This document shows, piece after piece, positions 1 to 15,631 of a stretch of 64,000 nt of DNA (its first letter is position 1; each line of letters starts with the position of its first letter). This stretch comes from Escherichia phage AV117. The stretch lies in sequence record OR352947.1; one strand, given 5' to 3'. The notes below the pieces were generated by a model. The model had not been told where the DNA came from. It worked only from the letters and a program-made list of their open reading frames with translations, and did not search any database. Position numbers and translations under genes: made by a program.

Positions 1-342
1 GTGTTGAAGTTTGCAGGCAAAGCATCTGATTTCGGTTTAGAAATAAATTTAGCGACGTTAGGATATGCCTTAAATGCTTCTTCTGCATCAGTACCACCAG
101 AAATCATAAATTTCCAGAAATCTTCAGCATATTCATAAGAGATGCGATTAATACGTGGGTCGGTCATTTTGAATGATGAAGGGGTATCAACAACTACTGT
201 CATAGACCCAATTTCATTACAACGTCCAATACGAGAATCAGTAACGAACTGTGGATTTTCTAAAATTTCACGATTGACAGCTTTAAATGCGGATTGAAAA
301 TCTTCGGCTTTAATATATTTCATTGTGTTATGTTTTCCCATG
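1..342 (-). CDS. hypothetical protein, N-terminal fragment (gene continues past window edge)
   Basis: ATG at 342..340 on minus strand, frame open to position 1 (114 codons, MGKHNTMKYIKAEDF...); only weak DxRxG/VVDTP resemblance to thymidylate-synthase-like dNMP hydroxymethylase N-termini. Confidence 0.4.
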
Positions 343-579
343 TTTACCTCAATACAGTTATTATATACTCAATTCATAAAGCTTATTTGAATTTCTTAGC
401 GATGTTGATATAACGTAGAGCTTCGGCTTAGTATTCCAATTGAACAGGTCCTTTAATCACTTTAGCCGCTTTAGTTTCAAAAAGGCCCTTATGGGCCTTT
501 TTAAGAATTTGTTCGTTGCTGTTAATTTTAATAGTCAAAATCTCTTCGTTAAGTTGGTGGTTAAAAGTTTTTCTAGAAA

Positions 580-1740
580 TCATTCTGGGTACCTCAAAGC
601 GTCATCAGAGTTAGTTATATCAATAATAGATATAGAGTTTTCTGATAACCCATTTTTAGATAACTGACGTTTATAATATCTTTCACAATATGTACACGTC
701 GTCCCACAGATTTCATTAGCACAATCGAAATCTGGATGTTTGAACCACCTTTTTTCTAAAAAGCCGTCTAACAAAGAGGTTTCAATATTTACCGTATGTG
801 AAAACTCAGTCTCATTTTCAAGAGTGAAAATGGTCTCTAAAGGCTTCCACAATTCCAACAAATTACCTTCAAATTTTTCAGAAGCATAAGCTTCAAGAAC
901 TTTCAAAATGTAGTCTGTGCTACCTGTACGTCCTGAAACTTTGAATTGAGTGATACCAATATCATTATAAAGTTTCAAATCTTGAGGACGAACAAAACGA
1001 GTTCTCAACCAGTTAAATGGGTCTGTATCACGAGCTTTAATACAGTGTTGCATTGGATATCCATTTAAGGATTTGGCATCATCTACTGTAACGTCAGTGC
1101 TATGGAAAATATAGCAAGAGTCACGATAGCTACAATGTGTTGTATACCCTTTACCAGCATTAGAACAGAACTCATTTACAAGAACTTCAAATATTATATT
1201 GTTCTTATTACAAAACTCTGCTGCACGTTTCAGGAAAGAAACTGAACGGTTCTTATGAATTCCACAGCAGACCTTTTTGATATTATATTGGTCATGCAAG
1301 TATTTGATTTGAGTTACAGCATCGACATGTAGAATTGTTGAAACTTCAATCTCAATGTCTTTATTGACTTCACGAACAATTTCCATAACAACAGGGTTAG
1401 CGATAGTAATACGCCATACGCCTATTGACCAAAGATACTGAACATAATCCTGAATAGCTTTCTTCTTCCACTCAACTAGTTCTCTTTTTGAACCAGGATT
1501 TATCGTGTTGAGTGTATAGTTAAAGCAAATACCTAATTCGTTACAACGTTTAACGTAATCTTCTAACATCTTTTTGTCAACGTCAGGAAGCCTAAAATCA
1601 GGTCTGGCTGCTACAAAAGCCATTTCTCTTGTAGAGCCGTATACTTCGTTTATCAAGCTATTAGGATAAGTTTTATTGAGCTCTACGATTTTATCAAGAA
1701 GAGCTAAATCAAAATTCGTTCCGATTTTAAAAGTATTCAT
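580..1740 (-). CDS. peptidase U32-family protein (Fe-S, RlhA/TrhP/UbiU-like fold)
   Basis: 386 aa; U32 blocks ITIANPVVMEIVREV...IEVSTILHV, Cys-rich EFCSNAGKGYTTHCSY signature region with four Cys, KVSGRTGSTDY motif. Confidence 0.75.
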   Translation of the reverse strand: MNTFKIGTNFDLALLDKIVELNKTYPNSLINEVYGSTREMAFVAARPDFRLPDVDKKMLEDYVKRCNELGICFNYTLNTINPGSKRELVEWKKKAIQDYVQYLWSIGVWRITIANPVVMEIVREVNKDIEIEVSTILHVDAVTQIKYLHDQYNIKKVCCGIHKNRSVSFLKRAAEFCNKNNIIFEVLVNEFCSNAGKGYTTHCSYRDSCYIFHSTDVTVDDAKSLNGYPMQHCIKARDTDPFNWLRTRFVRPQDLKLYNDIGITQFKVSGRTGSTDYILKVLEAYASEKFEGNLLELWKPLETIFTLENETEFSHTVNIETSLLDGFLEKRWFKHPDFDCANEICGTTCTYCERYYKRQLSKNGLSENSISIIDITNSDDALRYPE

Positions 1741-1800
1741 TTTTTTTTTTGCATCCCACGTTAATTGATGCGATGGTTTTTGCAGGTCTTACTTAAATTA

Positions 1801-2202
1801 TTATAGATTCGGTTTATATGATTTAAATGTTTCGAATTCGCCTTTATTCATAAGAGCTTTGAATTCGTCAGGACGCATAGCTTTGTCGTCGATAATCCAA
1901 TCATATACTGGTTTATGTGTTAGCAAATTATGGTACTTCAATCCAATGTTTGCCAAGTTCTGAATCAGACTTGGGAGAATGTCAATTGCTATACGACCAG
2001 GACCGACTGACTTCATACCGCGAGCAGTGTAAAGCGTTATGGTATGCCCTGCATCATACAGGGCATTAATGGCAGACACCATTTCGACGTCTGGTTTGAA
2101 GTTCACGTAATCACGATTGTTATTCCACTCTGTTATACAATCATCGACATCAAAACAAAGATTAAGCATGTTTTCTACACGGTGCATTAGATTCGTTCCC
2201 AT
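1801..2202 (-). CDS. HAD-superfamily phosphatase (small, KdsC-like)
   Basis: 133 aa; HAD motif I LCFDVDDCIT near N-terminus and C-terminal WIIDDK acidic motif; start overlaps 3' end of upstream kinase/NTase gene. Confidence 0.6.
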   Translation of the reverse strand: MGTNLMHRVENMLNLCFDVDDCITEWNNNRDYVNFKPDVEMVSAINALYDAGHTITLYTARGMKSVGPGRIAIDILPSLIQNLANIGLKYHNLLTHKPVYDWIIDDKAMRPDEFKALMNKGEFETFKSYKPNL

Positions 2203-3872
2203 TGATGAGTGATATCGCCACCGATTGGACGATAAGAAACACCGGTTTCTTTATCAGTTAGTACCCATTTACCAGGATTTTTTGTAATCAGAGTAGCCGT
2301 TACAGGTTCTGCTACGTCATAACTAATAGAGCCGTCCTGAAGTACACGGCCCATGTTACGTAATTGCTTAGTCAGAAGTTCCATACCTTTATAATATGCG
2401 GCTACCGCTTTAAGTGGATTATTCTTGAAATAACCACCTAATGCAATCCAGATAATTGCCGCTGCCAAATGATGATACTCGTTAAACGAACTCATCTTTC
2501 CATATTTGTAAACTAATGGATTGATGTTAATAGACACATTACAAGTTGTTTCATCGATAGTAAACTGTCCCCAGGTCGGATTAGCATTGAATTCATCATA
2601 ACCTGAAACAGCGTAAAGCACTTTAGCTTCATCATACAATTTTGGGCCGTAAATCTTGGTTTCGCCAAAATATCCACGAGGGTCGATAAACTTGACTTCG
2701 CCGTTATCAGTAATCATAGTATTACTGAAGTTCGGGTCACCATGAATAACAGAGTACTGTCCCTGAGAACGGTTATGATAACGAATAAGGTGTTCTAAAG
2801 CTTGTTTCAGCATTGGTTTCAGACGCCCAATCTTAGTGTAGTTCACATGTGTGATTTTACCAAATGAATCAATCAATGGTTGAATACTTTCACAACGATC
2901 AATGACTTTAGTATAGAATTCTTTAGTGAAATCACGACGAACAGTTTCAGGACTTACAAAATAAGTGTCTGTGCTGAATTTCAGTGCGTCTAAAATTGCA
3001 TCAACAATTTGTGGACGAGCAAGACTCGATTTGGATTTAATATATTCAAATGCTGGCTTACCTTTAATGCGTTCCATTTCAAAGTTATTTTCATTAACAG
3101 AAACTAACTGAGGAACTGAATCTGATTTCACTTTAAGATACCATGAAATCTCATCTTTCTGAAGAGCTCGACCCTGTTCGGTTAATGCGAATTTAGTTAC
3201 AGTTTCTTCACCAATTTCAACTGCATTAAAACTACGATTAAGTTCACGAACTTCATGAGCTTTTTCAAGTTTAGGCATATCACCTAAATCAATTAGATTC
3301 ATAAGCTCTGATTTATTGAATGCGCTGCCGTAAAGGAATTCTACGAAATCGCGTCCTTTGCAGTATTCATGAATTTCCTCATCAGTAGAACCCATATAGA
3401 ATTCCCAGTCTTTGAACTGATAAATTCCTACAACATTACCACCTGTTGAACCTACGTTAGTGATATTTTCACCGTCGAAATTATATCGACATTCGTCACC
3501 CTTAACATAGATTGCGTTAACATTCCAAGACCATGAACCAAAATCAGGAATAATATCACACCAGTTAACAATTACATTATGGCCGTCTAAATCTTTGTGC
3601 AATTTAGCAAGAGCATAAGCAGAACCATACGCTTCATCAACTGTACGAATAGTCACATTGAACCCTTCTTGCTCACAATAAGCTCGAACAGTTTCAGCAA
3701 ATTTTGAATGAACTACTACAATAATTTCATCTGCGCCAAGGTCAGAATAAATTGTATACAAATTGCTCAGAATAGTGTCTTGTTTATAATTAACAAGCAC
3801 CTTAGGAATATGATGCGTTATTGGATACAAACGAGTTGCCAGTCCAGCACCAAGAATAACAGCTTTTTTCAT
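2187..3872 (-). CDS. bifunctional sugar nucleotidyltransferase / sugar 1-kinase (NDP-sugar synthesis)
   Basis: 561 aa; N-terminal MKKAVILGAGLATRLYPIT is the GxGxR NTP-transferase signature (RmlA/GlmU-like); C-terminal HGDPNFSN and DPRGYFG resemble the catalytic loop of APH/choline-kinase-like kinases. Confidence 0.75.
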   Translation of the reverse strand: MKKAVILGAGLATRLYPITHHIPKVLVNYKQDTILSNLYTIYSDLGADEIIVVVHSKFAETVRAYCEQEGFNVTIRTVDEAYGSAYALAKLHKDLDGHNVIVNWCDIIPDFGSWSWNVNAIYVKGDECRYNFDGENITNVGSTGGNVVGIYQFKDWEFYMGSTDEEIHEYCKGRDFVEFLYGSAFNKSELMNLIDLGDMPKLEKAHEVRELNRSFNAVEIGEETVTKFALTEQGRALQKDEISWYLKVKSDSVPQLVSVNENNFEMERIKGKPAFEYIKSKSSLARPQIVDAILDALKFSTDTYFVSPETVRRDFTKEFYTKVIDRCESIQPLIDSFGKITHVNYTKIGRLKPMLKQALEHLIRYHNRSQGQYSVIHGDPNFSNTMITDNGEVKFIDPRGYFGETKIYGPKLYDEAKVLYAVSGYDEFNANPTWGQFTIDETTCNVSININPLVYKYGKMSSFNEYHHLAAAIIWIALGGYFKNNPLKAVAAYYKGMELLTKQLRNMGRVLQDGSISYDVAEPVTATLITKNPGKWVLTDKETGVSYRPIGGDITHQWERI

Positions 3873-3913
3873 GTTGTGGTCCTCATTGGTAAGTAGGAGT
3901 ATTGTACACTATT

Positions 3914-4057
3914 CTAGTTAAAGCATTCATACTTTGCTTGTAGTCCAATCATAATCCATCCGATTATAAGAGTCGGAACCATTACTGGAGCCGTTAAGCT
4001 CCAGTAGATAGTCATGACAAGCATCAATAGTAAAAGTCCTATTGTTATTGCTTTCAT
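3914..4057 (-). CDS. small hydrophobic membrane peptide (47 aa)
   Basis: ATG overlaps stop of upstream SIS gene (ATGA); MKAITIGLLLLMLVMTIYWSLTAPVMVPTLIIGWIMIGLQAKYECFN, two hydrophobic segments; below ORF-track size cutoff. Confidence 0.4.
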   Translation of the reverse strand: MKAITIGLLLLMLVMTIYWSLTAPVMVPTLIIGWIMIGLQAKYECFN

Positions 4058-4689
4058 TGTTCGCCTCGTAACATGGCACCTAGTGCACCGCCAGGGTGGA
4101 ACTTAAGGAAGTCATTAGAGGTAAATCCACGCTCAGACGAAAGGTTGATAGCAAACGTATCGATAAGCGCTAACAACAATGTAGTGGACATAGTCGGAGC
4201 CAGAGAATTCTCATCAACCTCTACTGCGATGCCTGTACAGAAAGAGTAATCAAAAAGGGCTTCATTTTCTTGTGGAATGTCTGGGTTACAATGCAACAGA
4301 ATCTGTTTGACGTTAGGACGAATCATTTTAAGATGCTTAGCCACGCCTATCATTTCTTCAGTTTTACCAGAACGACTAATATGAATCAACACATCATTAG
4401 GCGCAATGAATCCTGCATCACCGTGAGAATAATGCCCAGTGTTCAAGTACATACTCGGGATACCGAGTGAAGCAAATGTCTCAGAAGCTTTAGTTGCAAT
4501 ATTAGCATTCTTACCAACACCCGTAATAATTACTCGGCTTTCATAATTACTAAGTCCAGGGCGTCGAAGAGTTTCTAGAATAGCATTATAACGAGCAGGG
4601 TTTTGACTAATTACTTTGGCCATAGCGGCCAAAGAAGAAGCTTGTTTTATGATTGCGTCAATAGCGATAGTAATAGGAGTAGTTTTCAT
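4054..4689 (-). CDS. SIS-domain D-arabinose-5-phosphate isomerase (KdsD/KpsF-type, no CBS domains)
   Basis: 211 aa; ITGVGKNANIATK and LIHISRSGKTEE SIS motifs; C-terminal APTMSTT...RGFTSNDF...HPGGALG matches KdsD SIS domain. Confidence 0.8.
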   Translation of the reverse strand: MKTTPITIAIDAIIKQASSLAAMAKVISQNPARYNAILETLRRPGLSNYESRVIITGVGKNANIATKASETFASLGIPSMYLNTGHYSHGDAGFIAPNDVLIHISRSGKTEEMIGVAKHLKMIRPNVKQILLHCNPDIPQENEALFDYSFCTGIAVEVDENSLAPTMSTTLLLALIDTFAINLSSERGFTSNDFLKFHPGGALGAMLRGEQ

Positions 4690-4729
4690 ATTTCTCTCAT
4701 TTAATTAGTTTACCGTCCATGACATTATA

Positions 4730-7441
4730 TCAAAAATCGAACATATCGAACAGAGATGCTTTCTTCTCGTAATCGAGTTTCGCTGCTGATGTGAATCCTT
4801 CAAGTGGTTTAATAAATGTCTTCTCAAGGAGAACAGTGTAGTCCATCCAATGAAGTACGTCGTCTTTAATTAAATCTGTGATTTCAGTACCAGAAGGCCA
4901 TGCGATACATTTATCACCGAATGGGTTTCCTTCACGTAAAGGCAGAACATATACTTTTTCACCTTCTACAACTTGCGGTGCATCGATATTACCTTTGATA
5001 GCCCGGTTATACGTCAGAATTCCACGAATATGGAATGGACATTTAGGACCAGGGAATCCACCTACATCATATTTAGCAATGTTATTCGCAGAAGATACCG
5101 ACGCGATGCTAATATAATTCAATTGACGGAATTCTTTTTCAAACTCTTTAAAATATTCTTGTAATGATTCTTCACCTTCTTGAAGCATACGACGAATACA
5201 TTCTTTAAGAGCTTTCTGTACTGCTTTAGGAGTCGAAGATTTCTGAGTCTCTAGACCCATGATTTTGAGTTTAGGCTCAGCGTAACGAGTACCTTCCATA
5301 TCCCACACGTTTAATGCATAACGTTTCTTACCAGTCCAGAATCCGCCAATACCTTTAGAACCAAGCGGAGGCCCAGCGATAGCTTCTCGGTCCATGAACA
5401 TTAAGTGTTGTTTATTGTTCATGTATTCACACATTTCACGGAAACCTCTATCAATAGCTGGTTCCATACGTTCACGTGCAAACTTATCTAAGAAGTCTAC
5501 CCAATGGTTGGTATCACGGAATTTAGATTCACCAACCTTATCGATAATTTTATCAGCAGATACGTAAATAGAGTCTGTATCACCGTAAAGAACGAAAGCT
5601 TCACCTTCTGTGCCACAAACTTCATTCAGATATTCATTAACTTTACGTTCAATCCACTGTAAAGCCATTTGACCAAATGTTGTGATTGCAGTAGCATTAC
5701 GCAAATCATAATAACGGAACCAAACGTTTCCAAGTGCACCATAAAGTGAGTTGATAAGCAATTTACGGTTAATTTGGGCAGTCATACCTGCAACTTCAGT
5801 ACGTTGAGCTCTAAACAACATTTCATTAAGAGATTTAGCAGACAACTTTTTAATCTTTTCTTTAATCTCATCACTGAAGTCGAAACGATAATCAACATCT
5901 AATGGTTCGTCAACAGAAAGATTAGGATTATGCAATGCCTCTTTAATTATTTCACCATTACGTTGAGCTGCAAGCATGTAACCTTTATGTTCTTTACGTT
6001 GATTAAAGACCTTAGTGATTTCGGTTGGAACTACACCGTCACGGTCTTTATAATACATCATGCCGTTAGGAGAACAACTGTACACATCAGAAGGACGCTC
6101 AGCGATTGCGTTAATATAATCATGCAGTGGAGCTACTTTAAACGTTCCTGCTATTGTTTCTGGGCTAATATTCACTTGGCGAATAATACTTGGATACAGA
6201 GATGTAAGGTCGAAACTCATTACATATTTGTATCGATTTGGAATAGGTTCCTTAACAAAAGCGCCAGGATAAGGTTGAACCGGGTGAGAACGACCTTGTG
6301 GAATCACCTTGTTCTGCTCTTTAAGGCTATTAAAAATAATAGCATCCCATGTTTTAATTGGACTAAACACAGATTGAATCTGTATCTTAGCATAATAACC
6401 CATGTCCAAGCTCAAGTTAATGAACTGACGTTTACCATCAATTTGCAATACACGATACACGTCGATAATGTTATAAGAAATATATCGTTGGTGATTGCTT
6501 TCACGAAGCTTAGAAATAGGGCCGTCATATTTCAGTTTACCAACGTTCAATTCAAATTCTGAAATGTAATCCAGAGAATATGATGGTTGATTGGTAAAAG
6601 AGAATTTTTTGTAAAGGTCAATGTAATCAAGAACAGAGATACCGAACAATGTAATGATTTCACGAGAACCATACATGTTTTCGATAACTTTAACACGAGT
6701 TTTACGATGTGGTGACAACCGTTTTGCTGTGGATTCGCCAAAAATATTCTTGATTCGGTTATACACATATGGAATATCAAATGACTCAACGTTCCATCCA
6801 GTCAAAATGACAGGAGTTTTCTGTTGCCAGAAGTTGAGATATTCCATCAACAATTCTTTTTCGTTATCGAACGGCATATAAATGATTTTATCGATAATTT
6901 CGGATGGAACTTCATCACCACCTTGTTCTTGAAGCTTAGCCGCAATTTCGATAGACCATTCTTCTACATTACCATATGGAGAATTCAATAGATCAAATAC
7001 GTAGAACCTGTCGTCAATTGAGTCATAATGGGTGATAGCATCAATCGGATGTTTTGCTTGTGACGGCTCAGGGAACCCGTCCGGAGATGTTACTTCGATG
7101 TCGAAGTTAGCCACACGAATTTTTGTATGGTCGTATTTGATTTCATAGTTATAAGTGTCAGACAAATACGCTAATTTGAAATCGTCCATGCCAAGTGCTT
7201 CAAGTCCGATATCTTCCATGCGTTTAATCCATTGGGAGGCATCACGCATATTGGCGAACAACTTACGAGTACACGGCTTACCGTAGATATCGAAATATTT
7301 CGTAGCCTGACTTTCTGGACAATGAGCAAACAGTGATGGTTTATATTCTACTTCACGAGTACGTTCACGGCCATTAGAATCGATGTAACGTTCAAAAATT
7401 GAATCACCAATCTGTTCAACCGTTAAGTAAAATTCTTTCAT
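4730..7441 (-). CDS. 43: DNA polymerase gp43 (family B with 3'-5' exonuclease)
   Basis: 903 aa; exo motifs FDIEV and YNIIDV, pol motifs DLTSLYPSII, KLLINSLYGALG, YGDTDS; sequence reads as RB69-type gp43. Confidence 0.97.
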   Translation of the reverse strand: MKEFYLTVEQIGDSIFERYIDSNGRERTREVEYKPSLFAHCPESQATKYFDIYGKPCTRKLFANMRDASQWIKRMEDIGLEALGMDDFKLAYLSDTYNYEIKYDHTKIRVANFDIEVTSPDGFPEPSQAKHPIDAITHYDSIDDRFYVFDLLNSPYGNVEEWSIEIAAKLQEQGGDEVPSEIIDKIIYMPFDNEKELLMEYLNFWQQKTPVILTGWNVESFDIPYVYNRIKNIFGESTAKRLSPHRKTRVKVIENMYGSREIITLFGISVLDYIDLYKKFSFTNQPSYSLDYISEFELNVGKLKYDGPISKLRESNHQRYISYNIIDVYRVLQIDGKRQFINLSLDMGYYAKIQIQSVFSPIKTWDAIIFNSLKEQNKVIPQGRSHPVQPYPGAFVKEPIPNRYKYVMSFDLTSLYPSIIRQVNISPETIAGTFKVAPLHDYINAIAERPSDVYSCSPNGMMYYKDRDGVVPTEITKVFNQRKEHKGYMLAAQRNGEIIKEALHNPNLSVDEPLDVDYRFDFSDEIKEKIKKLSAKSLNEMLFRAQRTEVAGMTAQINRKLLINSLYGALGNVWFRYYDLRNATAITTFGQMALQWIERKVNEYLNEVCGTEGEAFVLYGDTDSIYVSADKIIDKVGESKFRDTNHWVDFLDKFARERMEPAIDRGFREMCEYMNNKQHLMFMDREAIAGPPLGSKGIGGFWTGKKRYALNVWDMEGTRYAEPKLKIMGLETQKSSTPKAVQKALKECIRRMLQEGEESLQEYFKEFEKEFRQLNYISIASVSSANNIAKYDVGGFPGPKCPFHIRGILTYNRAIKGNIDAPQVVEGEKVYVLPLREGNPFGDKCIAWPSGTEITDLIKDDVLHWMDYTVLLEKTFIKPLEGFTSAAKLDYEKKASLFDMFDF

Positions 7442-7453
7442 TTAATTTCCTTT

Positions 7454-7469
7454 AGACGAGTTATTGTCT
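7454..7469 (-). promoter_or_regulatory. putative gene 43 translational operator hairpin
   Basis: mRNA AGAC-AAUAACUC-GUCU hairpin immediately upstream of the AAAGGAAA Shine-Dalgarno of gene 43; loop matches the T4 gene 43 operator loop as recalled. Confidence 0.5.
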
Positions 7470-7488
7470 TTTGTTTGTTGATGAACTT

Positions 7489-7518
7489 ATTATACTCCAA
7501 ATGGGACCGAAGTCCCAT
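7489..7518 (-). promoter_or_regulatory. intercistronic GGGAC-UUCG-GUCCC stem-loop followed by TATAAT
   Basis: minus-strand AUGGGAC-UUCG-GUCCCAU hairpin (7501..7518) then TATAAT (7489..7494) between regA and gene 43. Confidence 0.45.
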
Positions 7519-7522
7519 TGCT

Positions 7523-7891
7523 TTAATTACCAATTGTATATTTTGCTTTCAAAGTCCAGTCATCTTTCTGTTTAAAAGAGATAACACGGAAGTTATTAGT
7601 CAAGCCAAACAGATCTTCACGAGCAGAGTCTTCAATAACAATCAATCCCCAGTCTTCAAGCAACTGAGCAATCGAATCACGTCGCTGATAGTCTTCACCG
7701 TCAATATCAACCAGACGTCCGTCCATACGCAGCATTTCTTTAAAGTGGACGATGTAATATTTACCTTGCTTTTGGAGGATATGACAAGACTGGTAAAGGA
7801 CTTTATCCTTGTTATTAGCGATGCCCATACGGGTCAAAGTCTCTTTGACTTTCAGAAAATCTTCAGGGTTCTTCAATTTAATTTCAATCAT
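7523..7891 (-). CDS. regA: translational repressor RegA
   Basis: 122 aa from MIEIKLKNPEDFLKVKETLTRMGIANNKDKVLYQSCHIL, matching T4 RegA; position between 62 and 43. Confidence 0.9.
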   Translation of the reverse strand: MIEIKLKNPEDFLKVKETLTRMGIANNKDKVLYQSCHILQKQGKYYIVHFKEMLRMDGRLVDIDGEDYQRRDSIAQLLEDWGLIVIEDSAREDLFGLTNNFRVISFKQKDDWTLKAKYTIGN

Positions 7892-7893
7892 TT

Positions 7894-8457
7894 TTACCAT
7901 TCCAATGCTAATTTTTTAAATTGTTTTTGTTCTTTCACATTTTTTGTAACTTCTTTGAGAAACTCATCAGTGACCATGGCCTTCAGTTCTTTAAGGACTA
8001 TTGGCAACTTGTTATTTTTTTCAAGGAGCCGCTTATACTCAGTAGCATCATTCATGTTGATTGTGTAATGTTTCATCAACAGTTTGATAACTAGTAACTC
8101 TGAAGTGTCTTCGACTAGTTTAGCCCATTTAGAGAATCGACGACCACGAGGAATTGCCGCCATCATATAGTTGAAGTGCGCTTCATCACTTAATTCAGAA
8201 CCGACTAAGTTCATCATGTAAACAGCTGGCATACATTCTGGGAACTGGGATAATGAGTTCTCAACCATAAATTTTGAGTAGTCGACCTGAGCAATTGACA
8301 TAGATTTCTTTTCATTAATAGCATTAATGATTTTAAAGAATTCATTCTCAGGTTTTTCTTTAAACATATCAGCACATTTTTGAATCGCATCAGCGTCATT
8401 AGACTTCCATGCAATTTGGTGCTCGTTAAGCCGGACGTCATCATCGAATAAGTTCAT
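7894..8457 (-). CDS. 62: clamp loader small subunit gp62
   Basis: 187 aa, same length and position as T4 gp62 between 44 and regA. Confidence 0.85.
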
Positions 8458-8458
8458 A

Positions 8459-9421
8459 TTATTTCCAAGTCAGTTCGCAGGTCAGTTGAAGAAGCATATA
8501 CATAACATGTAATTCAATATTACTTGCTAATCCATGAAACTTATTGTTTTCGCCTGCAATTTCATAAAGCGAAATAATACTTTTACCAGGTGCAACTTGG
8601 TCATAACATTCTGAAACTAATTTATCGATGAACCATGAATAATCTGCGGCATATTTTGGAGCTAATGCACGAAGCTGTTTGATATCTTTGTTCTTCATTG
8701 CTTCGATAACATCAGAGACTGTGCCACGGTCATTAGTTACGATAGACAAAATACCCGCATCAAGAACACCTTTAGACGAGTACTGGTCTAATTGACCAAT
8801 TGTGCGACGAAAGTCTGGGAAGTTCTTTTTAACCAGAGCTGCAACAACTTTCATATCAGCGATTTCGATATTTTCATTCTTACAGATTTCAACCATACGA
8901 TGAATCATTTTCTTCATCATCGAGATTTTATCTTCTTCGGTTGGACGTCCGAATTCGATAACTCGACAACGACTACGTAATGGTTCAATAATTCCATCGA
9001 TGTTGTTAGCAGTAATAATAATAGAACAGTTACTAGAGAATTCTTCCATAAACGTACGAAGGTGTCGTTGTGATTCGGCGAGGCCACTACGGTCAAATTC
9101 ATCAATAACAATAACTTTAGGCTTGCCTTCCATTGAGACTGAACGAGCGAATGCGGTTAACGGACCCCGCACAAAATCAATCTTACAATCAGAACCGTTG
9201 ACGAACATCATTTCGGCATTGATATCATTACATAATGCTTTTGCTACGGTTGTTTTACCTGTACCAGGAGAAGGAGAGTGCAAAATAATATGAGGAAGTT
9301 TTCCTTTAGATACTAAAGACTTGAATGTTTCATGGTCATACGCAGGCAGAATACATTCGTCAATGGAAGAAGGACGATATTTCTGTTCTAGAATGTGTTC
9401 TTTGGAATTGATAGTAATCAT
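8459..9421 (-). CDS. 44: clamp loader ATPase gp44
   Basis: 320 aa; Walker [11 protein letters not shown], Walker B VIVIDEFD; T4 gp44 position. Confidence 0.92.
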
Positions 9422-9496
9422 GTAATTTTCCTCATTATCATTAAACTGGAGGATTTCTCCTCCATAATCGTATCACAATAAACGTAAAGCTTTAAC

Positions 9497-10183
9497 TTAA
9501 AAGTCGTGAGTAGAATCGGCTTCCATCGCAATAACATAACTTACTTGAGAGCTTTCAAACTTGGCTGCAACTTTATCACCAGCTCCCCACAGCATTACTT
9601 TATAGTTACCTGGCTGGATTTTCATATTAGCCATATTGATTACGAAGTTAAAATTGTTAGAACCATCATAATCGGTAAGAGTCAAAGAATACTTAGGACG
9701 GGTTAGTCCAGAATCTTCAACTTTATTATAGCCATTGATAACAATTTTACCATCTTTATTTGTAATAGCAATTGTATCAATCTGAAGACCACGTGAAACT
9801 CGAAGCAATTGTTGAAGGTCTTCAGCTTTAATTTCAGTAATCACAGAAGCCACTGGGAATTGAATTGGCTTATTAGGAAAAACAATGGTGCTCTTGTCAG
9901 CGGCAGGCCAATAAACCGTGGAACGTGTATCTGCAATTTTAATATTGCCATCGGTGTGCATTGAAATTTCAGCATCATCAGACACTAAACTCAAAATGCT
10001 TAAGAAGCTATTCAAATCATAAAGTGCTACGTCAAAATCAATTTCATCAGAGATATTTGCTTCCGCATAAGTGGTGCCATTAACTGCACGAGTCATAATA
10101 AATTTACCTTGACTCAGCAGAATACCGGAGTTAATAGAGGCAAAGTTTTTCAGAATAGCGATAGTATCTTTAGACAGTTTCAT
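9497..10183 (-). CDS. 45: sliding clamp gp45
   Basis: 228 aa from MKLSKDTIAILKNFASINSGI; C-terminal EADSTHDF as in T4 gp45; start moved to internal ATG. Confidence 0.92.
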   Translation of the reverse strand: MKLSKDTIAILKNFASINSGILLSQGKFIMTRAVNGTTYAEANISDEIDFDVALYDLNSFLSILSLVSDDAEISMHTDGNIKIADTRSTVYWPAADKSTIVFPNKPIQFPVASVITEIKAEDLQQLLRVSRGLQIDTIAITNKDGKIVINGYNKVEDSGLTRPKYSLTLTDYDGSNNFNFVINMANMKIQPGNYKVMLWGAGDKVAAKFESSQVSYVIAMEADSTHDF

Positions 10184-10225
10184 TTTATTTCCTTTCAAGA
10201 CAATTCAAAGTTTATAACAAATTTA

Positions 10226-10642
10226 TTATGCAGCAACCATTTGCTTTTTAATAGCTTCAGGCAGTGATTCAATATATTCTGGAATTTTAGAAGCAACAAT
10301 TTCGCCAGCTGCAATTAGTTGTTCGTCGGCATCAACACAGTAGAGATCTTCCAGACGCTCAGAACCATCTTTATCAAGAACGATTTTTCCGCCGGCTTCA
10401 ATAGAATCTTTATAGTGCTTACGCATCAGATGAATCCACATATCAGATACATCGTTATCAATAAAACCATAAATCATAAAACGAGTTTCTTGTGGCAAAG
10501 ATTGGAGTTTTTTAGCACTTGCGTCATCACAATGCAGGACCCATGCTTTACGAACACGATTATGGTTATGTGGGTTAGCGTCAGTACGGATAGAAGTAAC
10601 TTTCAGATCAGCAGCAGTGAAACCTTTAGCAGTAGTAAACAT
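10226..10642 (-). CDS. rpbA: RNA polymerase binding protein RpbA
   Basis: 138 aa ORF in the T4 rpbA position between 46 and 45. Confidence 0.65.
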   Translation of the reverse strand: MFTTAKGFTAADLKVTSIRTDANPHNHNRVRKAWVLHCDDASAKKLQSLPQETRFMIYGFIDNDVSDMWIHLMRKHYKDSIEAGGKIVLDKDGSERLEDLYCVDADEQLIAAGEIVASKIPEYIESLPEAIKKQMVAA

Positions 10643-10654
10643 ATTATTTCTCTC

Positions 10655-10855
10655 TTATTCGTAGAAGTCGGTAACTGTCCATGCGGAATTGCGATTAGAC
10701 ATTATTTTATTATACTCATCTTTAAAAGCAGATTTGAGCATTTGTTCAGTAACAATATGTTCTTCGCCTGAAAACGTATTGGTCAAAACATATTTTTTAA
10801 TTTCAGGGACAACTAGAAGATGTTGTCCGGTTGAATACTCCATGTTGTTCTCCAT
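10655..10855 (-). CDS. hypothetical protein (45.2 position)
   Basis: 66 aa ORF tightly packed between gene 46 and rpbA. Confidence 0.5.
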   Translation of the reverse strand: MENNMEYSTGQHLLVVPEIKKYVLTNTFSGEEHIVTEQMLKSAFKDEYNKIMSNRNSAWTVTDFYE

Positions 10856-10897
10856 TTAATTTGATGTGGTCATTATAACCACATCGTGTTAAAGCGT

Positions 10898-12586
10898 TTA
10901 TGAAACAGTCATTACCGTAAATCGTCCAACTTTGCTCATCTGAAGATGTTGTCCGTACCGTTGAGGGTCATGGTCTCGATGGGAGATAATGAACACATTA
11001 GTATTTTGTAAACTTCCAAGGATGGTATCTATAGCCTTAACAGCCTCAGAATCGACAGCACCATCAAAAACCTCATCAAGAATCAGAGTGTTGATTTTAA
11101 CACCAGAGACCTTTTCAGCAATATCTCGCCATGTAAACAACAATGCGATATCGATACGTGCCTTTTCACCTTGACTAAATGAAGCATAACTAAAATCTTC
11201 ACGACCACGTGATTTTATAGATTCATTGAATTCTTCGTCAATAGAAAACACGTAATCAGCTTCCATGATTTTAAGATAATGGTTAATCTGCTTGTTGAAC
11301 AGAGGCACATATTTTTTAATGATAGCACCTTTAATACCAGAATCTTTTAACATATCTGTGATAATACCACGATGGTATTTTTCAAGAACGATATCTGATT
11401 TTGTTTTAATGATTTTATCAAGTTCTTTTTGAAGCAAAGCTATCTCATCGGCATGGTCGATAAATTCAGCTGAGGCTTGTTCTATTGCAGCTTTAACTTT
11501 CTTAGCTTTATCAATAGTGGCAATCATTGCTTGTTTCTTAGTACGAATATCAGATGCAAGGTCCTGTTTAGTCTTAACATTAGCTCTATATTCGTCAACT
11601 AGGACACTCAGATTATCTCTGTGACATGTAAGTTGCTCGAATGAGTGATTACATTCGTGAAGCTTATCGGTAATCTTAGAGACAATAGGGTCACCCTGGT
11701 GCAACTGTGATGCGCAAGTAGGACATGTACCACCATCATGATACATCTTAATAACTTTATTATATGAGTCAATTTTAGATTTAATCAAGAATGCTTCTTG
11801 TCCTATCTTGTTGAATGCCTCAGTAGGGTCTTCATCAAGAACGATATTAAGTAGTCGCTCATTAGCTTCTTCGATTTCTGCTTTTAATGAACGAGCTTCT
11901 TTGGCTAGGTCGTCATACATATTCTGTAGACGCGCTACATTATCACCAGATAATTTCTTTTGACGTTCGATATTCTCGTTATAAATCTTAATTTGTTGGA
12001 TAATACCATCTTTCTTGGCATCGAGAACTTGTCCCTGGGAATTAAGTTCTCGAACTTGAGACTTATTGATTTTATCCATTTCAGCGAGTGTGCCGACTTC
12101 TAAAAGGTCTTCGACAAGTTTTCTGCGAGCAGGGGTGCTAAGAGCCATGAAAGGGGTATACCCTGCCGTCCCAAGCACAACGATTTGTTTAAAAGACGCG
12201 TATGACATTCCGATGCTACGTTCAAATTCTTCTTGGAAGTCACGACTGCTGGCAGATTCATCAAGACGAACACCGTCAACGGAGATTTCGAAAATATTGG
12301 GTTTTTGGCCACGTTTAATGAAGTATTTTTTACCATCGAATTCCATCCAAAGCTCAACTAAGAGCTCTTTCTTGTTCGTGCTATTAATGATTTGCCCTTT
12401 CTTAACATCACGAAATGGTTTACCGAAAAGTCCGAAAGTAATGGCTTCTAACATCGTAGATTTACCACCACCATTTTTACCAGTGATTAATGTCTTTTGG
12501 ACTTTATCTAATTGGATGTCAATAGGATTCCCACCTACCGACATGATGTTTTGATAACGAACACGATTTAATTTAAATGATTTCAT
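10898..12586 (-). CDS. 46: recombination endonuclease subunit gp46 (Rad50/SbcC-like ATPase)
   Basis: 562 aa; Walker A GKNGGGKST, central coiled coil, C-terminal LILDEVFD; T4 gp46 is 560 aa. Confidence 0.93.
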   Translation of the reverse strand: MKSFKLNRVRYQNIMSVGGNPIDIQLDKVQKTLITGKNGGGKSTMLEAITFGLFGKPFRDVKKGQIINSTNKKELLVELWMEFDGKKYFIKRGQKPNIFEISVDGVRLDESASSRDFQEEFERSIGMSYASFKQIVVLGTAGYTPFMALSTPARRKLVEDLLEVGTLAEMDKINKSQVRELNSQGQVLDAKKDGIIQQIKIYNENIERQKKLSGDNVARLQNMYDDLAKEARSLKAEIEEANERLLNIVLDEDPTEAFNKIGQEAFLIKSKIDSYNKVIKMYHDGGTCPTCASQLHQGDPIVSKITDKLHECNHSFEQLTCHRDNLSVLVDEYRANVKTKQDLASDIRTKKQAMIATIDKAKKVKAAIEQASAEFIDHADEIALLQKELDKIIKTKSDIVLEKYHRGIITDMLKDSGIKGAIIKKYVPLFNKQINHYLKIMEADYVFSIDEEFNESIKSRGREDFSYASFSQGEKARIDIALLFTWRDIAEKVSGVKINTLILDEVFDGAVDSEAVKAIDTILGSLQNTNVFIISHRDHDPQRYGQHLQMSKVGRFTVMTVS

Positions 12587-12837
12587 ATGTATTCTCTTCG
12601 AATGAAGTCCTCTACATATTTTAACATGTCATCTCTATCAGCAAAATATTCATCTAGTTCTGCATACATAACAACACCTGGTGCGTACTCACAGGTAACG
12701 TACATTGTTCCAAAGAAACGAGGAGTTGATTCCTCGTAATTCTCAGTCCATTCAACGATACCAATATAACCATCACCAATACTAAACTCATGACGATGGA
12801 TTTCATAATCTGTCTTAGTCATTATATGCATCCTCAA
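12583..12837 (-). CDS. hypothetical protein (46.1 position)
   Basis: 84 aa ORF, start overlaps upstream gene, stop overlaps gene 46 start. Confidence 0.5.
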   Translation of the reverse strand: MRMHIMTKTDYEIHRHEFSIGDGYIGIVEWTENYEESTPRFFGTMYVTCEYAPGVVMYAELDEYFADRDDMLKYVEDFIRREYI

Positions 12838-13066
12838 TACACGCTTCAGCCATTTTAAGAATAGAGCCAGGAGTATCGTTGTCCATTATATTAAAGCTAA
12901 ATTCAATAGCCCAGTCGGTGCAGACATGAACTGCTTTAACTTCATTGCCTTCAACGCGTAATGGCTCAATCCAATACTTGATAGTGTTCTCGAATCCATC
13001 GTCATCTTTAACGTCCATTTCAACTTCAAGGTTGAGTCCAGCATTGTTAAATTCATCTAAAGTCAT
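12815..13066 (-). CDS. hypothetical protein (46.2 position)
   Basis: 83 aa ORF between 47 and 46, overlapping junctions. Confidence 0.5.
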   Translation of the reverse strand: MTLDEFNNAGLNLEVEMDVKDDDGFENTIKYWIEPLRVEGNEVKAVHVCTDWAIEFSFNIMDNDTPGSILKMAEACIEDAYND

Positions 13067-14082
13067 TGTGTTGCCTCAATATAAAGTTCGTTGGAATATT
13101 TGACCAGCGCTTCTCTGTCTTCGTCTGAGATATCTGGAATCGCGTCAATATATTCTTTAATGATATCTTGAAGTGATTTAATCTCGATTTCCTGGTCGTC
13201 ATCAGATTCAACACTGTTATCAACTTTAGAAACCATACGAAGAGAGTGAACTACTTTTTCAAGTTCAGATTCAAACTTAGTCAACTCTGAATCAATTTCT
13301 GATACTATAACACGTACGGCTAGATTAGTATAATCAGAATAATTGATTTTGCCTTTAAACGGATAAGTGATTCGTCGATGCCATGTTGTTTCATTAGGAA
13401 TAAATTCCATACGTTCAACATCGGTGTCAAATACCCAGAATCCTCGAGGGTCGTTTTCATCACCTGCAGTAAGGGTCCATGGTGTCCCAATATATTTGAC
13501 GTTAGCAGCTTCAGAGATTGTGTGGAAGTGGCCGGACCAGACTTGTTTATAGGTCTTTAAGAAATCAGGTTCAAGCCCATGAGACTTCATTCCTTTATAG
13601 AAATAAAAGCCATTCAGTTCCCAGTGCCCAACACAAAAAGAAGCAGATGAAGTTTTGATATGTTCAAGAATTTCACCAGTATTTTCTTCGCACATCCAAG
13701 GAATTAAATCAATCAAACATCCGTCAAAATCTACTGTAGTAGGCTTATCATATACTTTAACATTAGGATATTTAGCTAAAAGCTCAGTAGAAGCGTTTGG
13801 AGTTAAAGTATTTTTAAAGTGCATATCATGGTTTCCTACAACAGTATGTAGGGTAATACCAGCATCATCAAGCATTTGAACTATTTCACGTGCGAACTCC
13901 ATAGTTTTATGCGTGATTGCTTTTCGCACATCAAAAATATCACCGTATTGAATCCATGTAGTAATTCCATTTTTCTTGGAATATTCTATCGCCTGCTTAA
14001 TTCCATCCAACTGAATGGATTGAACCCACTCATCATCGGCTTTAACACCTAAATGCCAATCACCTAAATTTAAAATTTTCAT
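13063..14082 (-). CDS. 47: recombination endonuclease subunit gp47 (Mre11/SbcD-like nuclease)
   Basis: 339 aa; phosphoesterase motifs LGDWHLG, GDIFD, VVGNHD, GHFH; same length as T4 gp47. Confidence 0.93.
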   Translation of the reverse strand: MKILNLGDWHLGVKADDEWVQSIQLDGIKQAIEYSKKNGITTWIQYGDIFDVRKAITHKTMEFAREIVQMLDDAGITLHTVVGNHDMHFKNTLTPNASTELLAKYPNVKVYDKPTTVDFDGCLIDLIPWMCEENTGEILEHIKTSSASFCVGHWELNGFYFYKGMKSHGLEPDFLKTYKQVWSGHFHTISEAANVKYIGTPWTLTAGDENDPRGFWVFDTDVERMEFIPNETTWHRRITYPFKGKINYSDYTNLAVRVIVSEIDSELTKFESELEKVVHSLRMVSKVDNSVESDDDQEIEIKSLQDIIKEYIDAIPDISDEDREALVKYSNELYIEATQ

Positions 14083-14128
14083 ATTATTTCCTCATTAGTT
14101 AATTCATTCTATCATCCGTTTATAAAGC

Positions 14129-14153
14129 AAAAAAAGGAACTCCGAAGAGTTCC
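14129..14153 (-). terminator. rho-independent terminator
   Basis: minus-strand GGAACUC-UUCG-GAGUUCC hairpin followed by U7. Confidence 0.6.
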
Positions 14154-14329
14154 TATCCACATAGTACACCGTACAGAGGCTCATTTGAACTTTTAAATCG
14201 AATGGGCTTGTATGTAATAGTTCCTTCTGCTTTAGCTTTATCATGAGACTCTTTAAAACGTCTCATCATTTCTACTTTAGAGGAACGAATTTTATTATAA
14301 TCTATTTCAGAAGTCGGGATGTTCGTCAT
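14153..14329 (-). CDS. hypothetical small protein (58 aa)
   Basis: ATG at 14329, MTNIPTSEIDYNKIRSSKVEMMRRFKESHDKAKAEG...; ends at terminator hairpin; below ORF-track cutoff. Confidence 0.35.
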   Translation of the reverse strand: MTNIPTSEIDYNKIRSSKVEMMRRFKESHDKAKAEGTITYKPIRFKSSNEPLYGVLCG

Positions 14330-14368
14330 GCATAAGCACCTCTCAGAAAATGCCTAAATCAATTTCTC

Positions 14369-14575
14369 TCATCGTTTCCACCATTTCTTAACTTGAAATG
14401 AATCAACCCACACGAGTTGTTTTGGGTCTGCCTTTACAATAGGCGGACAAATTTCTGTAATAGAACCGTCGTGATATTCCTTTTCAGAGATTTTAACACA
14501 AAGAGGACCTCCCAATTTAAGGGTGAATCCTGCGTTCAGATTAAGACGTTTAAACTTTGTTTGAACTAGCGCCAT
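14369..14575 (-). CDS. hypothetical protein
   Basis: ORF in 47-55 interval; start set at internal ATG. Confidence 0.4.
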   Translation of the reverse strand: MALVQTKFKRLNLNAGFTLKLGGPLCVKISEKEYHDGSITEICPPIVKADPKQLVWVDSFQVKKWWKR

Positions 14576-14873
14576 TAATGATGTCCTCAATAGCCTGACG
14601 AGTAGTAACCCACTGGATTTTAATTAACTTGTCATTATATGGTTGTCGTAGAATATCCCGAGATTTCTTAATAGCATATTCGTAAGCTTCGAAGTTGTTT
14701 TGAATTGCTGCTTCTTGAGCATGAGCATAAAGACGGTTTAGTTCAAAACGATTCTTTTTAAGAATCTTTTCGGATTTTTTACGTGCTTCAGCTTCATTTT
14801 TCTTTTGGATTTCTTGTAGCATTTTAGCTACTGCATCTTCTGCTTCTTTATTTTCAATAATCTCGGTAGTCAT
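14550..14873 (-). CDS. hypothetical protein
   Basis: 107 aa lysine/glutamate-rich helical ORF in 47-55 interval. Confidence 0.5.
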   Translation of the reverse strand: MTTEIIENKEAEDAVAKMLQEIQKKNEAEARKKSEKILKKNRFELNRLYAHAQEAAIQNNFEAYEYAIKKSRDILRQPYNDKLIKIQWVTTRQAIEDIINGASSNKV

Positions 14874-14874
14874 A

Positions 14875-15084
14875 TTATCTCATTAAATTAAAATAAAAAC
14901 GTCCATCCTCTTCAATACAGAACTCATACTCGACCGGAGTCCCATTTATCGAAAATGACACGTCATGTGGGTTCAAAGGGTCGATGTCAAAATTAATTTT
15001 AAATTCACGACCCAACAGTTTTATCAAATAAGGGATTGCTTCGTCAAAAGGTTCTTCTAAGTAGTTAGAGATGTCAATTGTCAT
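14875..15084 (-). CDS. hypothetical protein
   Basis: ORF immediately downstream of gene 55; start set at internal ATG 15084 to limit overlap with gene 55. Confidence 0.45.
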
Positions 15085-15631
15085 CCTCATATAAAAAATC
15101 CAAACTAGGCGAATCGCTAACAACTTCCTTCTTTTCAGCCCCAGGAGCTTTATAAGCGGATTCTTCATAATGCGTCATTTTATCGTAGATGTCTTGAATA
15201 AACGTTTCATCTACCAACGCTACCATATCATCGTCATGACTGTCGTAGACGTTATGAACGAAGTAACTATATTTCTTTGCAACTTCCTTACGTTCTTTTT
15301 TGATACGTTGGACAAAAGCATTAAAACAAGCTCGAGTTATGTATGCATGTGGGTTATTGTACTTAGTTTCGTCGAAATTATGAAGTCCCTTAATAGAGGC
15401 TTCAATCCCATCTGCAATCATCTCCTGCTTCCAAGACTGGGTATATCCTGAAAAGTTGAAACGTTTGGACAGGCCTTCGGCGATAAGCATAATTGCTAAA
15501 CCGATGGTATCATTCTGACGAATAATTTTGTTTGGGTCTTTATTATTTAAGAGCTCCTTTTTCCACTCGATTATAGCGGCGAGAAGCTCTTTATTATTCA
15601 CATAGTTATTTTTAGGTTTTTGTTCAGTCAT
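15074..15631 (-). CDS. 55: late-transcription sigma factor gp55
   Basis: 185 aa; [20 protein letters not shown]...[45 protein letters not shown] matches T4 gp55 nearly throughout. Confidence 0.95.

Follow-up and report, generated by a model that had tools for sequence, protein, structure and literature searches.

A U32-family gene in the arabinosyl-5-hydroxycytosine cluster of RB69-type phages may encode an oxygen-independent, prephenate-using route to 5-hydroxycytosine

Introduction

Escherichia phage AV117 is a T4-type coliphage of the RB69 group (Mosigvirus). We analysed a 64,000-nucleotide stretch of its DNA (OR352947.1), hereafter the window, in which one gene encodes a 386-residue protein of the U32 family that is homologous to RB69 gp50. 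Comparative evidence leads us to propose, with the balance tipping somewhat in its favour, that this protein is an oxygen-independent, prephenate-using enzyme that makes 5-hydroxycytosine (5hoC) for phage DNA. The components of the proposal differ in strength. The gene very probably belongs to the DNA-modification pathway, its product is likely to use prephenate, and there is a reasonable likelihood that it is a base hydroxylase. The most fitting reading of the protein and its relatives is as a new subfamily of U32 hydroxylases, borne by phages, that acts on DNA precursors.

RB69 DNA contains mono- and di-arabinosylated 5hoC and not hydroxymethylcytosine (Lee et al. 2026, PMC13326640). The precursor, 5-hydroxy-deoxycytidine monophosphate (5-hydroxy-dCMP), is made by gp48, a thymidylate-synthase homologue that binds flavin mononucleotide and incorporates 18O from O2 (PMC13326640). 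He et al. 2026, as cited in PMC13326640, showed in vitro that the oxygen does come from O2. Mention of the U32 protein gp50 in PMC13326640 is confined to an undiscussed entry in Table 1 ("sugar or heterocycle reductase", with a match to 5d88), and the corresponding cluster of Acinetobacter phage DLP3 (gp76-83) has no U32 gene. There is no mention of the gene in the Thanatos, RB69-2018 and Durham papers. We found no literature linking U32, prephenate or chorismate mutase to phage DNA modification in a search that covered the newest work (2025-2026) incompletely. The original prediction for this gene, made from the letters of the DNA, held that it had no obvious role; this has been overtaken by the arabinosyl-5hoC of RB69-type DNA (PMC13326640) and by the C5 hydroxylation of pyrimidines in RNA by U32 enzymes. 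The same prediction had offered three options, of which modification of a base is now favoured, and modification of the sugar donor and unrelated cargo are disfavoured.

A diverged U32 subfamily with conserved cysteines

The protein matches Pfam PF01136 over residues 94-286 with a score of 42.4 bits against a cut-off of 22.4 (E 6.3e-11) and belongs to PHROG 5757. Alignment with hhalign to UbiU, TrhP and RlhA gave a probability of 96.9% (E 1.5e-10). Both the predicted family and the predicted kinship with RlhA, TrhP and UbiUV are therefore borne out, and a homology search left the protein in U32 and not in another TIM-barrel family. It shares the TIM-barrel fold of the solved U32 protein. A search of the PDB by sequence returned no meaningful match; Mk0906, a U32 protein of Methanopyrus kandleri with 247 residues (PDB 5d88), is 14% identical and lacks the C-terminal four-cysteine extension of the phage protein. 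Equivalog score and domain architecture do not identify it as an orthologue of RlhA, TrhP, UbiU or UbiV, the extra domains of RlhA and TrhP being absent, and the best profile alignment of its family is to the UbiU/UbiV group. Judged by sequence, it belongs to a separate, diverged U32 subfamily that stands well apart from the very large canonical groups. A profile search of 1.84 billion cluster representatives found 465 clusters at E<=1e-30 and 1668 at E<=1e-3. Hundreds of metagenomic relatives share 44-58% identity with the protein.

Ten cysteines are invariant among 45 relatives of the phage protein, and C192, C203, C233 and R271 are identical in every one of 127 diverse family members. R271 lies in a G-R-T motif that aligns with the "EGR" motif of U32 proteins. 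Position 209 is cysteine in 74 and histidine in 52 of the 127 members, an alternation typical of a metal ligand. The C-terminal motif CX4CX3CX2C (C340/C345/C349/C352) is invariant in the 45 relatives and about 94% conserved in the 127. Known four-cysteine motifs of U32 proteins have the form CX6CX15CX3/4C, with variants CX6CX16CX38C in UbiU and CXnCX12CX3C in UbiV, and the [4Fe-4S] ligands of UbiU include C169 and C176 (PMC6747719). The C203/C209 pair falls on these two ligands in the hhalign alignment, whereas MAFFT places C192 on C169 and C233 on UbiU C232, so that the correspondence of individual cysteines is uncertain. The phage protein is probably a TIM-barrel metalloprotein carrying a [4Fe-4S] cluster.

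Database records name such proteins "peptidase", "putative protease" or "collagenase-like protease". A collagenase-like peptidase, or a decaying passenger gene outside the pathway, is nonetheless extremely unlikely. The peptidase label is historical and unsupported for characterised U32 members (PMC6747719), and C192, C203, C233 and R271 do not vary among 127 distant members. None of the 221 phage records with the gene has a shortened copy, and the product of the gene is more conserved than the adjacent ThyA-like enzyme (82-100% identity across at least 10 host genera, against 76-81%). Gene order is also kept, and the overlapping reading frames suggest coupled translation.

Position in the arabinosyl-5hoC cluster and distribution among hosts

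At all 19 T4-like loci examined, the U32 gene is co-oriented within the arabinosyl-5hoC cluster (RB69 gp45-55, or Afh genes). It lies between the HAD and ThyA-like genes in phages HX01, LC53 and Entb_45, and adjoins a kinase gene in Thanatos-2. In the window it is co-oriented with the genes of a nucleotide-sugar module (HAD-like, nucleotidyltransferase plus kinase, SIS) that is followed by the replication gene gp43, as had been predicted.

The U32 gene occurs in 221 of 50,697 phage records, 153 of them Mosigvirus at >=95% identity and 68 at 80-90% identity, with none lower. The hosts of all 221 belong to Enterobacterales or Shewanella and are facultative anaerobes. All 221 records also hold the ThyA-like gene, which itself occurs in 373 records, including 57 from Acinetobacter and 20 from Rhizobium phages. 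None of these 57 and none of these 20 has U32, a tally taken from genus counts in which 12 of the 221 U32 records have no genus and are accounted for by other enterobacterial or Shewanella phage names. On this count U32 is missing from phages of strict aerobes that have the O2-dependent enzyme. In Acinetobacter phage Melin the HAD gene directly abuts the ThyA-like gene, and the U32-containing cassette can therefore be seen as an insertion exactly at the HAD/ThyA-like junction. U32 is absent from Melin, DLP3, Dhakavirus dhaeg and Kosakonia phage 305; it is an accessory and not a core component of the arabinosyl-5hoC cluster in T4-like phages.

The same distribution bears on a role in RNA. The characterised relatives RlhA and TrhP set a precedent for a hydroxylase of host or phage RNA, at sites like C2501 of rRNA or U34 of tRNA, that tunes translation in the infected cell and plays no part in DNA modification, and T4-like phages hold many translation-related accessory genes. 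Yet the position in a DNA-modification cluster is kept across phages that share only 44-58% identity, U32 is never found in T4-like phages without the 5hoC pathway (all 221 records and 19 loci are positive for the ThyA-like gene), and the host already has RlhA and TrhP. We consider an RNA substrate very improbable.

A further argument for an anaerobic route comes from ribonucleotide reduction. The window encodes the anaerobic ribonucleotide reductase NrdD and its activase NrdG, which predicts a phage equipped for DNA synthesis without O2, and despite these genes the published route to its obligatory cytosine substitute requires O2. The O2 requirement of gp48 alongside NrdD/NrdG thus supports U32 as the anaerobic route. 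Parallel pairs of O2-dependent and O2-independent enzymes are known in TrhO/TrhP, UbiIHF/UbiUV and NrdAB/NrdDG.

Linkage to chorismate mutase and DAHP synthase

The product of chorismate mutase is prephenate. Type II chorismate mutase genes (CM_2, PF01817) are present in Serratia phage LC53 and Enterobacter phage Entb_45 (E 1.7e-11 and 2.4e-10), where the gene overlaps the U32 stop at one end and the ThyA-like start at the other. The arrangement in Shewanella phage Thanatos-2 differs, with U32 lying after a Tmk-like kinase gene in another part of the cluster, yet an overlapping chorismate mutase gene again follows U32 (E 8e-8). By tblastn, this chorismate mutase is encoded in 51 phage records. 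Each is from a T4-like phage that infects Enterobacterales or Shewanella, and in each the gene neighbours U32 or the ThyA-like gene. A hidden Markov model (HMM) detected chorismate mutase at 16 of 19 T4-like U32 loci and at 10 of 30 loci from uncultivated sources. Kosakonia phage 305 lacks both U32 and chorismate mutase, while the congeneric Entb_45 has both. Because they have been gained, lost and moved together, as 305, Entb_45 and Thanatos-2 illustrate, the two genes behave as a cassette.

The linkage extends beyond T4-like phages. In one jumbo-phage lineage a chorismate mutase reading frame overlaps the U32 stop as it does in T4-like phages, and at loci L040-42 and L051 (loci are cited by number where coordinates are given) a fusion of DAHP synthase and chorismate mutase adjoins U32 (PF00793 E 2.5e-36 and PF01817 E 8e-18). 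Judging from their domains, these proteins would be products of phage auxiliary genes that supply the entry and branch-point steps from shikimate to prephenate.

This association mirrors what is known genetically of RlhA (YdcP), which resembles the phage protein in its U32 domain and in the cytosine C5 hydroxylation proposed for it. RlhA makes 5-hydroxycytidine at C2501 of 23S rRNA and needs prephenate and Fe-S, and a PheA variant with chorismate mutase activity alone rescues the modification (PMC5727448). The dependence on prephenate finds its counterpart in the chorismate mutase genes adjacent to U32 in sister phages. RlhA has essential cysteines in the U32 region and also requires cysteines near its C-terminus (PMC5727448); the phage protein has conserved cysteines in both regions. 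RlhA differs in its length of 653 residues, its duplicated or extra domains and its action on ribosome precursors, whereas the phage protein has other cysteine spacing and its gene sits among those of deoxynucleotide enzymes.

TrhP, which depends on prephenate, and TrhO, which depends on O2, are redundant routes to 5-hydroxyuridine in tRNA, and a chorismate-mutase-only PheA variant rescues TrhP (PMC6599085). The logic proposed for the phage is the same, with an O2-dependent and a prephenate-dependent enzyme that would yield one hydroxypyrimidine at any O2 level. There are differences: TrhO is a rhodanese and the phage's O2-dependent partner is a flavin-binding thymidylate-synthase homologue, the substrate is tRNA in one case and putatively a DNA precursor in the other, and the redundancy in the phage is a reading from comparison. 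UbiU and UbiV are O2-independent [4Fe-4S] hydroxylases (PMC6747719). They have the U32 fold, bind their cluster through four cysteines with family-specific spacing, and provide an anaerobic alternative to the flavin monooxygenases UbiI, UbiH and UbiF. They differ in forming a heterodimer, requiring UbiT and acting on a lipid quinone, whereas the phage protein is the product of a single gene.

Within the phage, the closest functional comparison is with the adjacent ThyA-like synthase (the homologue of RB69 gp48, DLP3 gp80 and HY126), for which we propose the same substrate and product in the arabinosyl-5hoC pathway. The ThyA-like enzyme has an unrelated fold, depends on flavin and O2 and is present in every arabinosyl-5hoC phage. 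In contrast, the U32 protein is an accessory component in T4-like phages, and in uncultivated phages of anaerobes it stands without such a partner.

The wider subfamily in uncultivated phages

We collected 30 non-T4 loci, called and clustered their open reading frames, and grouped them into 21 lineages at 80% U32 identity. The U32 proteins of the diverged lineages share 44-58% identity, and neighbours were counted within 8 kb. Most of the 30 loci are on phage contigs of 8 to 466 kb with genes such as those for holin, terminase, PolIII-alpha, RecA and DnaG. A homologue of Aat1, the DNA arabinosyltransferase of RB69, is encoded near U32 in 14 of the 21 lineages (full-length alignment E 8e-10). 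Other recurrent neighbours are Tmk-like deoxynucleoside monophosphate (dNMP) kinases, dCMP deaminase (5 lineages) and dUTPase_2 (4 lineages). An HMM for the ThyA-like hydroxylase matched at 19 of 19 T4-like loci and at 0 of the 30 non-T4 loci. DNA glycosyltransferases and dNMP kinases therefore co-occur with U32 at loci where no ThyA-like gene is found.

In phages of about 45 kb the gene order is dUTPase_2, Tmk, glycosyltransferase, U32 and PolIII-alpha. The scheme of T4 comprises dCTPase, gp42, a kinase and a glucosyltransferase. Because glycosyltransferase, kinase and deoxynucleotide genes adjoin U32 without a ThyA-like gene, U32 appears to occupy the place of T4 gp42. We regard this gene order as the strongest argument that U32 would create the hydroxyl handle on a mononucleotide.

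The neighbours of U32 also address where the hydroxylation would occur. An enzyme of the same chemistry could act after replication on cytosine in phage DNA, or on deoxycytidine or deoxycytidine triphosphate and not dCMP, and so mop up unmodified cytosine. All characterised U32 enzymes of nucleic acids act on RNA polymers, and the second four-cysteine motif could be a zinc-ribbon-like element that binds nucleic acid. Against this, the genes that recur beside U32 encode enzymes of mononucleotides (Tmk-like kinases, dCMP deaminase, dUTPase_2, NT5C, deoxynucleoside kinase and guanylate-kinase fusions), and the phage protein lacks the extra C-terminal domains of RlhA (653 residues) and TrhP (453 residues). 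A post-replicative or non-dCMP substrate is in our judgement unlikely.

A role in the sugar branch, as a "sugar or heterocycle reductase" or in UDP-arabinose synthesis with arabinose phosphate or UDP-arabinose as substrate, is the alternative that the comparisons weaken most, and we think it decidedly unlikely. It would account for the direct adjacency of U32 to the HAD, nucleotidyltransferase-kinase and SIS genes, for the reductase label in Table 1 of PMC13326640 and in the record of phage ChristianSchoenbein, and for the BASEL annotation as UDP-arabinose synthesis. Sugar genes also lie near U32 among the 21 lineages (AfhE-like nucleotidyltransferase-kinase in 8, SIS in 6, HAD in 9), and the same sugar genes as in T4-like phages co-occur with it in 8 of the 21. 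However, the same sugar genes serve Acinetobacter phages, which lack U32, in making mono- to tri-arabinosyl-5hoC, and AfhE and AfhF suffice to form UDP-arabinose from arabinose 5-phosphate (summarised in PMC13326640). The phages of about 45 kb (L013, L032, L036, L037, L043 and L054) have U32 with glycosyltransferase, Tmk and dUTPase genes and lack SIS, nucleotidyltransferase-kinase and HAD genes. Nothing in pentose chemistry accounts for the link to chorismate mutase and DAHP synthase, and to our knowledge no U32 enzyme acts on sugars.

In a separate observation, one uncultivated phage (L038, 2594-4411) encodes a 605-residue fusion of an Aat1-like DNA glycosyltransferase with a Tmk-like P-loop kinase, a physical link between the two activities.

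Cellular loci

A pattern scan of 100,044 GTDB species genomes found the subfamily at 7 loci, in Erysipelotrichales, Lachnospiraceae, two Romboutsia, a Bacillota metagenome-assembled genome (MAG), a BRC1 MAG and an isolate of Phocaeicola faecalis. The gut taxa among them are obligate anaerobes. Nearly all of the cellular carriers belong to anaerobe lineages, which, like the lack of U32 in phages of strict aerobes with the ThyA-like gene, lends indirect support to a function without O2. There is no ThyA-like gene at any of the 7 loci. The locus in the Erysipelotrichales MAG combines U32 with genes for chorismate mutase, a kinase and a glycosyltransferase.

A second, cellular context for U32 was seen as a conserved cassette in three phyla, where GP88 (PF17338), a methyltransferase-containing protein and a protein of about 270 residues precede U32 (Table 1). 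The methyltransferase is a fusion of guanylate kinase and S-adenosylmethionine (SAM)-dependent methyltransferase in L062 and L063, and methyltransferase domains alone were recorded in L008. From its domains, this cassette might carry out hydroxylation, O-methylation and phosphorylation of a nucleotide. A PADLOC search for defence systems gave no match for U32 or its partners in the cellular cassette. The cassette in L008 is followed (9116-15428) by genes for NT5C, a PnuC-like transporter, a deoxynucleoside kinase, an AlaX-like protein, a radical SAM-SPASM protein, a second and more distant U32 paralogue (377 residues) and a nucleoside 2-deoxyribosyltransferase. These genes appear to form an island for nucleoside salvage or modification.

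Proposed function and mechanism

From these comparisons we infer a scheme that assigns the U32 protein a substrate, a product, a use for prephenate, independence of O2, an Fe-S cluster and a physiological role. Phage dCTPase would supply dCMP. When O2 is present, the flavin-dependent ThyA-like enzyme would make 5-hydroxy-dCMP. When O2 is lacking, the U32 enzyme, through its Fe-S cluster and with prephenate as hydroxyl donor or cofactor, would convert dCMP, most likely to 5-hydroxy-dCMP. Phages with a chorismate mutase of their own would obtain prephenate from it, and the others, Mosigvirus phages among them, would depend on host PheA and TyrA. A phage dNMP kinase and the polymerase would then incorporate the 5-hydroxy nucleotide, and Aat transferases would arabinosylate it. 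In RB69-like phages, U32 would serve as a second route to 5hoC, replacing the ThyA-like synthase during anoxic infection of a facultative host, and in phages of strict anaerobes it would be the sole hydroxylase.

Several points weigh against this proposal. Pairwise BLAST of the U32 protein against Escherichia coli RlhA, TrhP, UbiU and UbiV gave no significant match, so it is linked to the characterised enzymes by profile methods only, and its sole NCBIfam match, to UbiU, scores 19.4 bits against a cut-off of 440. The canonical CX6CX15CX3/4C spacing is replaced by CX10CX5C/HX23C in the phage subfamily. Even in the case of RlhA and TrhP, neither direct catalysis nor the part played by prephenate has been proved (PMC6599085), and we found no biochemical or genetic test of the gp50 protein in the literature, of which the newest part (2025-2026) was incompletely covered. 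Mosigvirus, the genus of AV117, and Marfavirus have no chorismate mutase. Dhakavirus dhaeg and Kosakonia phage 305 infect enterobacteria and have the ThyA-like gene without U32, which must therefore be dispensable under at least some conditions. The absence of the ThyA-like gene from non-T4 loci refers to the 8 kb around U32 and not to whole genomes. Few independent lineages underlie the association with hosts, and the databases are weighted towards gut metagenomes. There is also no sign of O2-responsive transcription: the window contains 4 matches to FNR-type sites, none of them near the U32 gene, against 7.5 expected, and scans of the window for sigma-70 promoters and terminators did not rise above chance.

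More tentatively, the subfamily could constitute a new class of enzyme, an Fe-S, prephenate-dependent, O2-independent C5 hydroxylase of deoxypyrimidine nucleotides that is the anaerobic counterpart of the thymidylate-synthase-like hydroxylases. It might then be the sole source of hydroxypyrimidines, and perhaps of methoxy derivatives, for glycosylated DNA in many uncultivated gut phages, including jumbo phages, and the DAHP synthase and chorismate mutase that some of these phages encode could rewire host shikimate flux to supply the enzyme.

If the proposed function is correct, it would explain how phages that replace all cytosine with O2-derived 5hoC replicate in the anoxic gut, the habitat of their hosts. 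It would place a second, unrelated enzyme family beside the thymidylate-synthase paradigm of pre-replicative pyrimidine modification and would give a rationale for phage chorismate mutase and DAHP synthase as auxiliary metabolic genes. Its small, soluble substrates, dCMP and prephenate, would make the U32 mechanism testable where an in vitro assay has long been lacking (PMC6747719, PMC6599085). Some 465 to 1,100 protein clusters, mostly from uncultivated phages or anaerobe-associated contigs at the loci examined, would flag unexplored hypermodified DNA, which is relevant to restriction evasion, phage therapy and sequencing artefacts.

Organisation of the window and minor observations

Coordinates of the features are given in Table 1. 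Bases 1-4800 are 98.5% identical to phage HX01, and at least 80% of this stretch is covered in 152 phage records. Transcription of the module on the minus strand proceeds in the order gp43, SIS, nucleotidyltransferase plus kinase, HAD-like, U32, 51-residue reading frame and ThyA-like gene.

Table 1. Coordinates of the U32 gene, its neighbours in the window, and related cassettes at other loci
Feature	Sequence	Location	Strand	Basis or remark
U32-family gene, 386 residues, RB69 gp50 homologue	window	580..1740	-	Pfam PF01136, PHROG 5757
Codons for residues 192-233, putative first metal site C192/C203/C209/C233 (CX10CX5CX23C)	window	1042..1167	-	conservation, 127 members
Codons for C-terminal CX4CX3CX2C (C340, C345, C349, C352), possible second Fe-S or Zn site	window	685..723	-	conservation
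51-residue open reading frame, phrog_8601	window	428..583	-	start overlaps U32 stop by 4 nt (ATGA)
ThyA-like 5-hydroxy-dCMP synthase, RB69 gp48 homologue, 5' 113 codons, cut by window edge	window	1..341	-	97% identity over 113 residues to HX01 "thymidylate synthase"; function from PMC13326640
HAD-like phosphatase, RB69 gp51 / AfhF-like, UDP-arabinofuranose pathway	window	1801..2202	-	phrog_1238, E 5e-43; role from PMC13326640
Bifunctional nucleotidyltransferase + kinase, RB69 gp52:53 / AfhE-like	window	2187..3872	-	Pfam NTP_transferase E 8e-10, weak kinase-family matches; PMC13326640
SIS-domain arabinose-5-phosphate isomerase, RB69 gp55 homologue	window	4054..4689	-	Pfam SIS E 1e-10; HX01 annotation
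DNA polymerase gp43	window	4730..7441	-	first in transcription order of module
Anaerobic ribonucleotide reductase NrdD (605 residues, E 3e-171) and radical-SAM activase NrdG (156 residues)	window	19068-21352	-	
DAHP-synthase/chorismate-mutase fusion	L040	6411-7433		
DAHP-synthase/chorismate-mutase fusion	L042	6321-7376		
DAHP-synthase/chorismate-mutase fusion	L051	9079-10197		
DAHP synthase alone, following U32	L030	9080-9826		
Cellular cassette, Phocaeicola faecalis	L063	2996-7089		
Cellular cassette, BRC1 MAG	L062	2929-7086		
Cellular cassette, Bacillota MAG	L008 (= L059)	5135-9098		

The nucleotidyltransferase-kinase and HAD genes overlap by 16 nt (2187-2202), and this overlap, together with that of 4 nt between U32 and the 51-residue reading frame, suggests translational coupling along the module. 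The 51-residue frame is confined to Mosigvirus, where it is present in all 153 records at 80-98% identity, and it fills the slot taken by chorismate mutase in other genera. The idea that this frame is a decayed chorismate mutase was rejected: its HMM score is 1.4 bits while shuffled sequences reach 8.7, and it has no Pfam match. A GrcA-like glycyl-radical spare part is annotated in HX01, elsewhere in the matching region.

Database labels for genes of these clusters are often misleading. The Aat1 arabinosyltransferase is called "RNA polymerase binding protein" (L001, 5726-6625, and many GenBank records), the HAD phosphatase "phosphoheptose isomerase" or "capsule biosynthesis protein", the 5-hydroxy-dCMP synthase "thymidylate synthase" or "dCMP hydroxymethylase", and U32 "peptidase" or "collagenase". 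Homing-endonuclease genes lie inside the modification cluster of LC53 (L002, 4854-5492; NUMOD3, E 1e-14) and of Kosakonia phage 305 (L011, 6737-7396). Beside U32 or ThyA-like genes, such endonucleases may provide a means by which the cassette is gained and lost.

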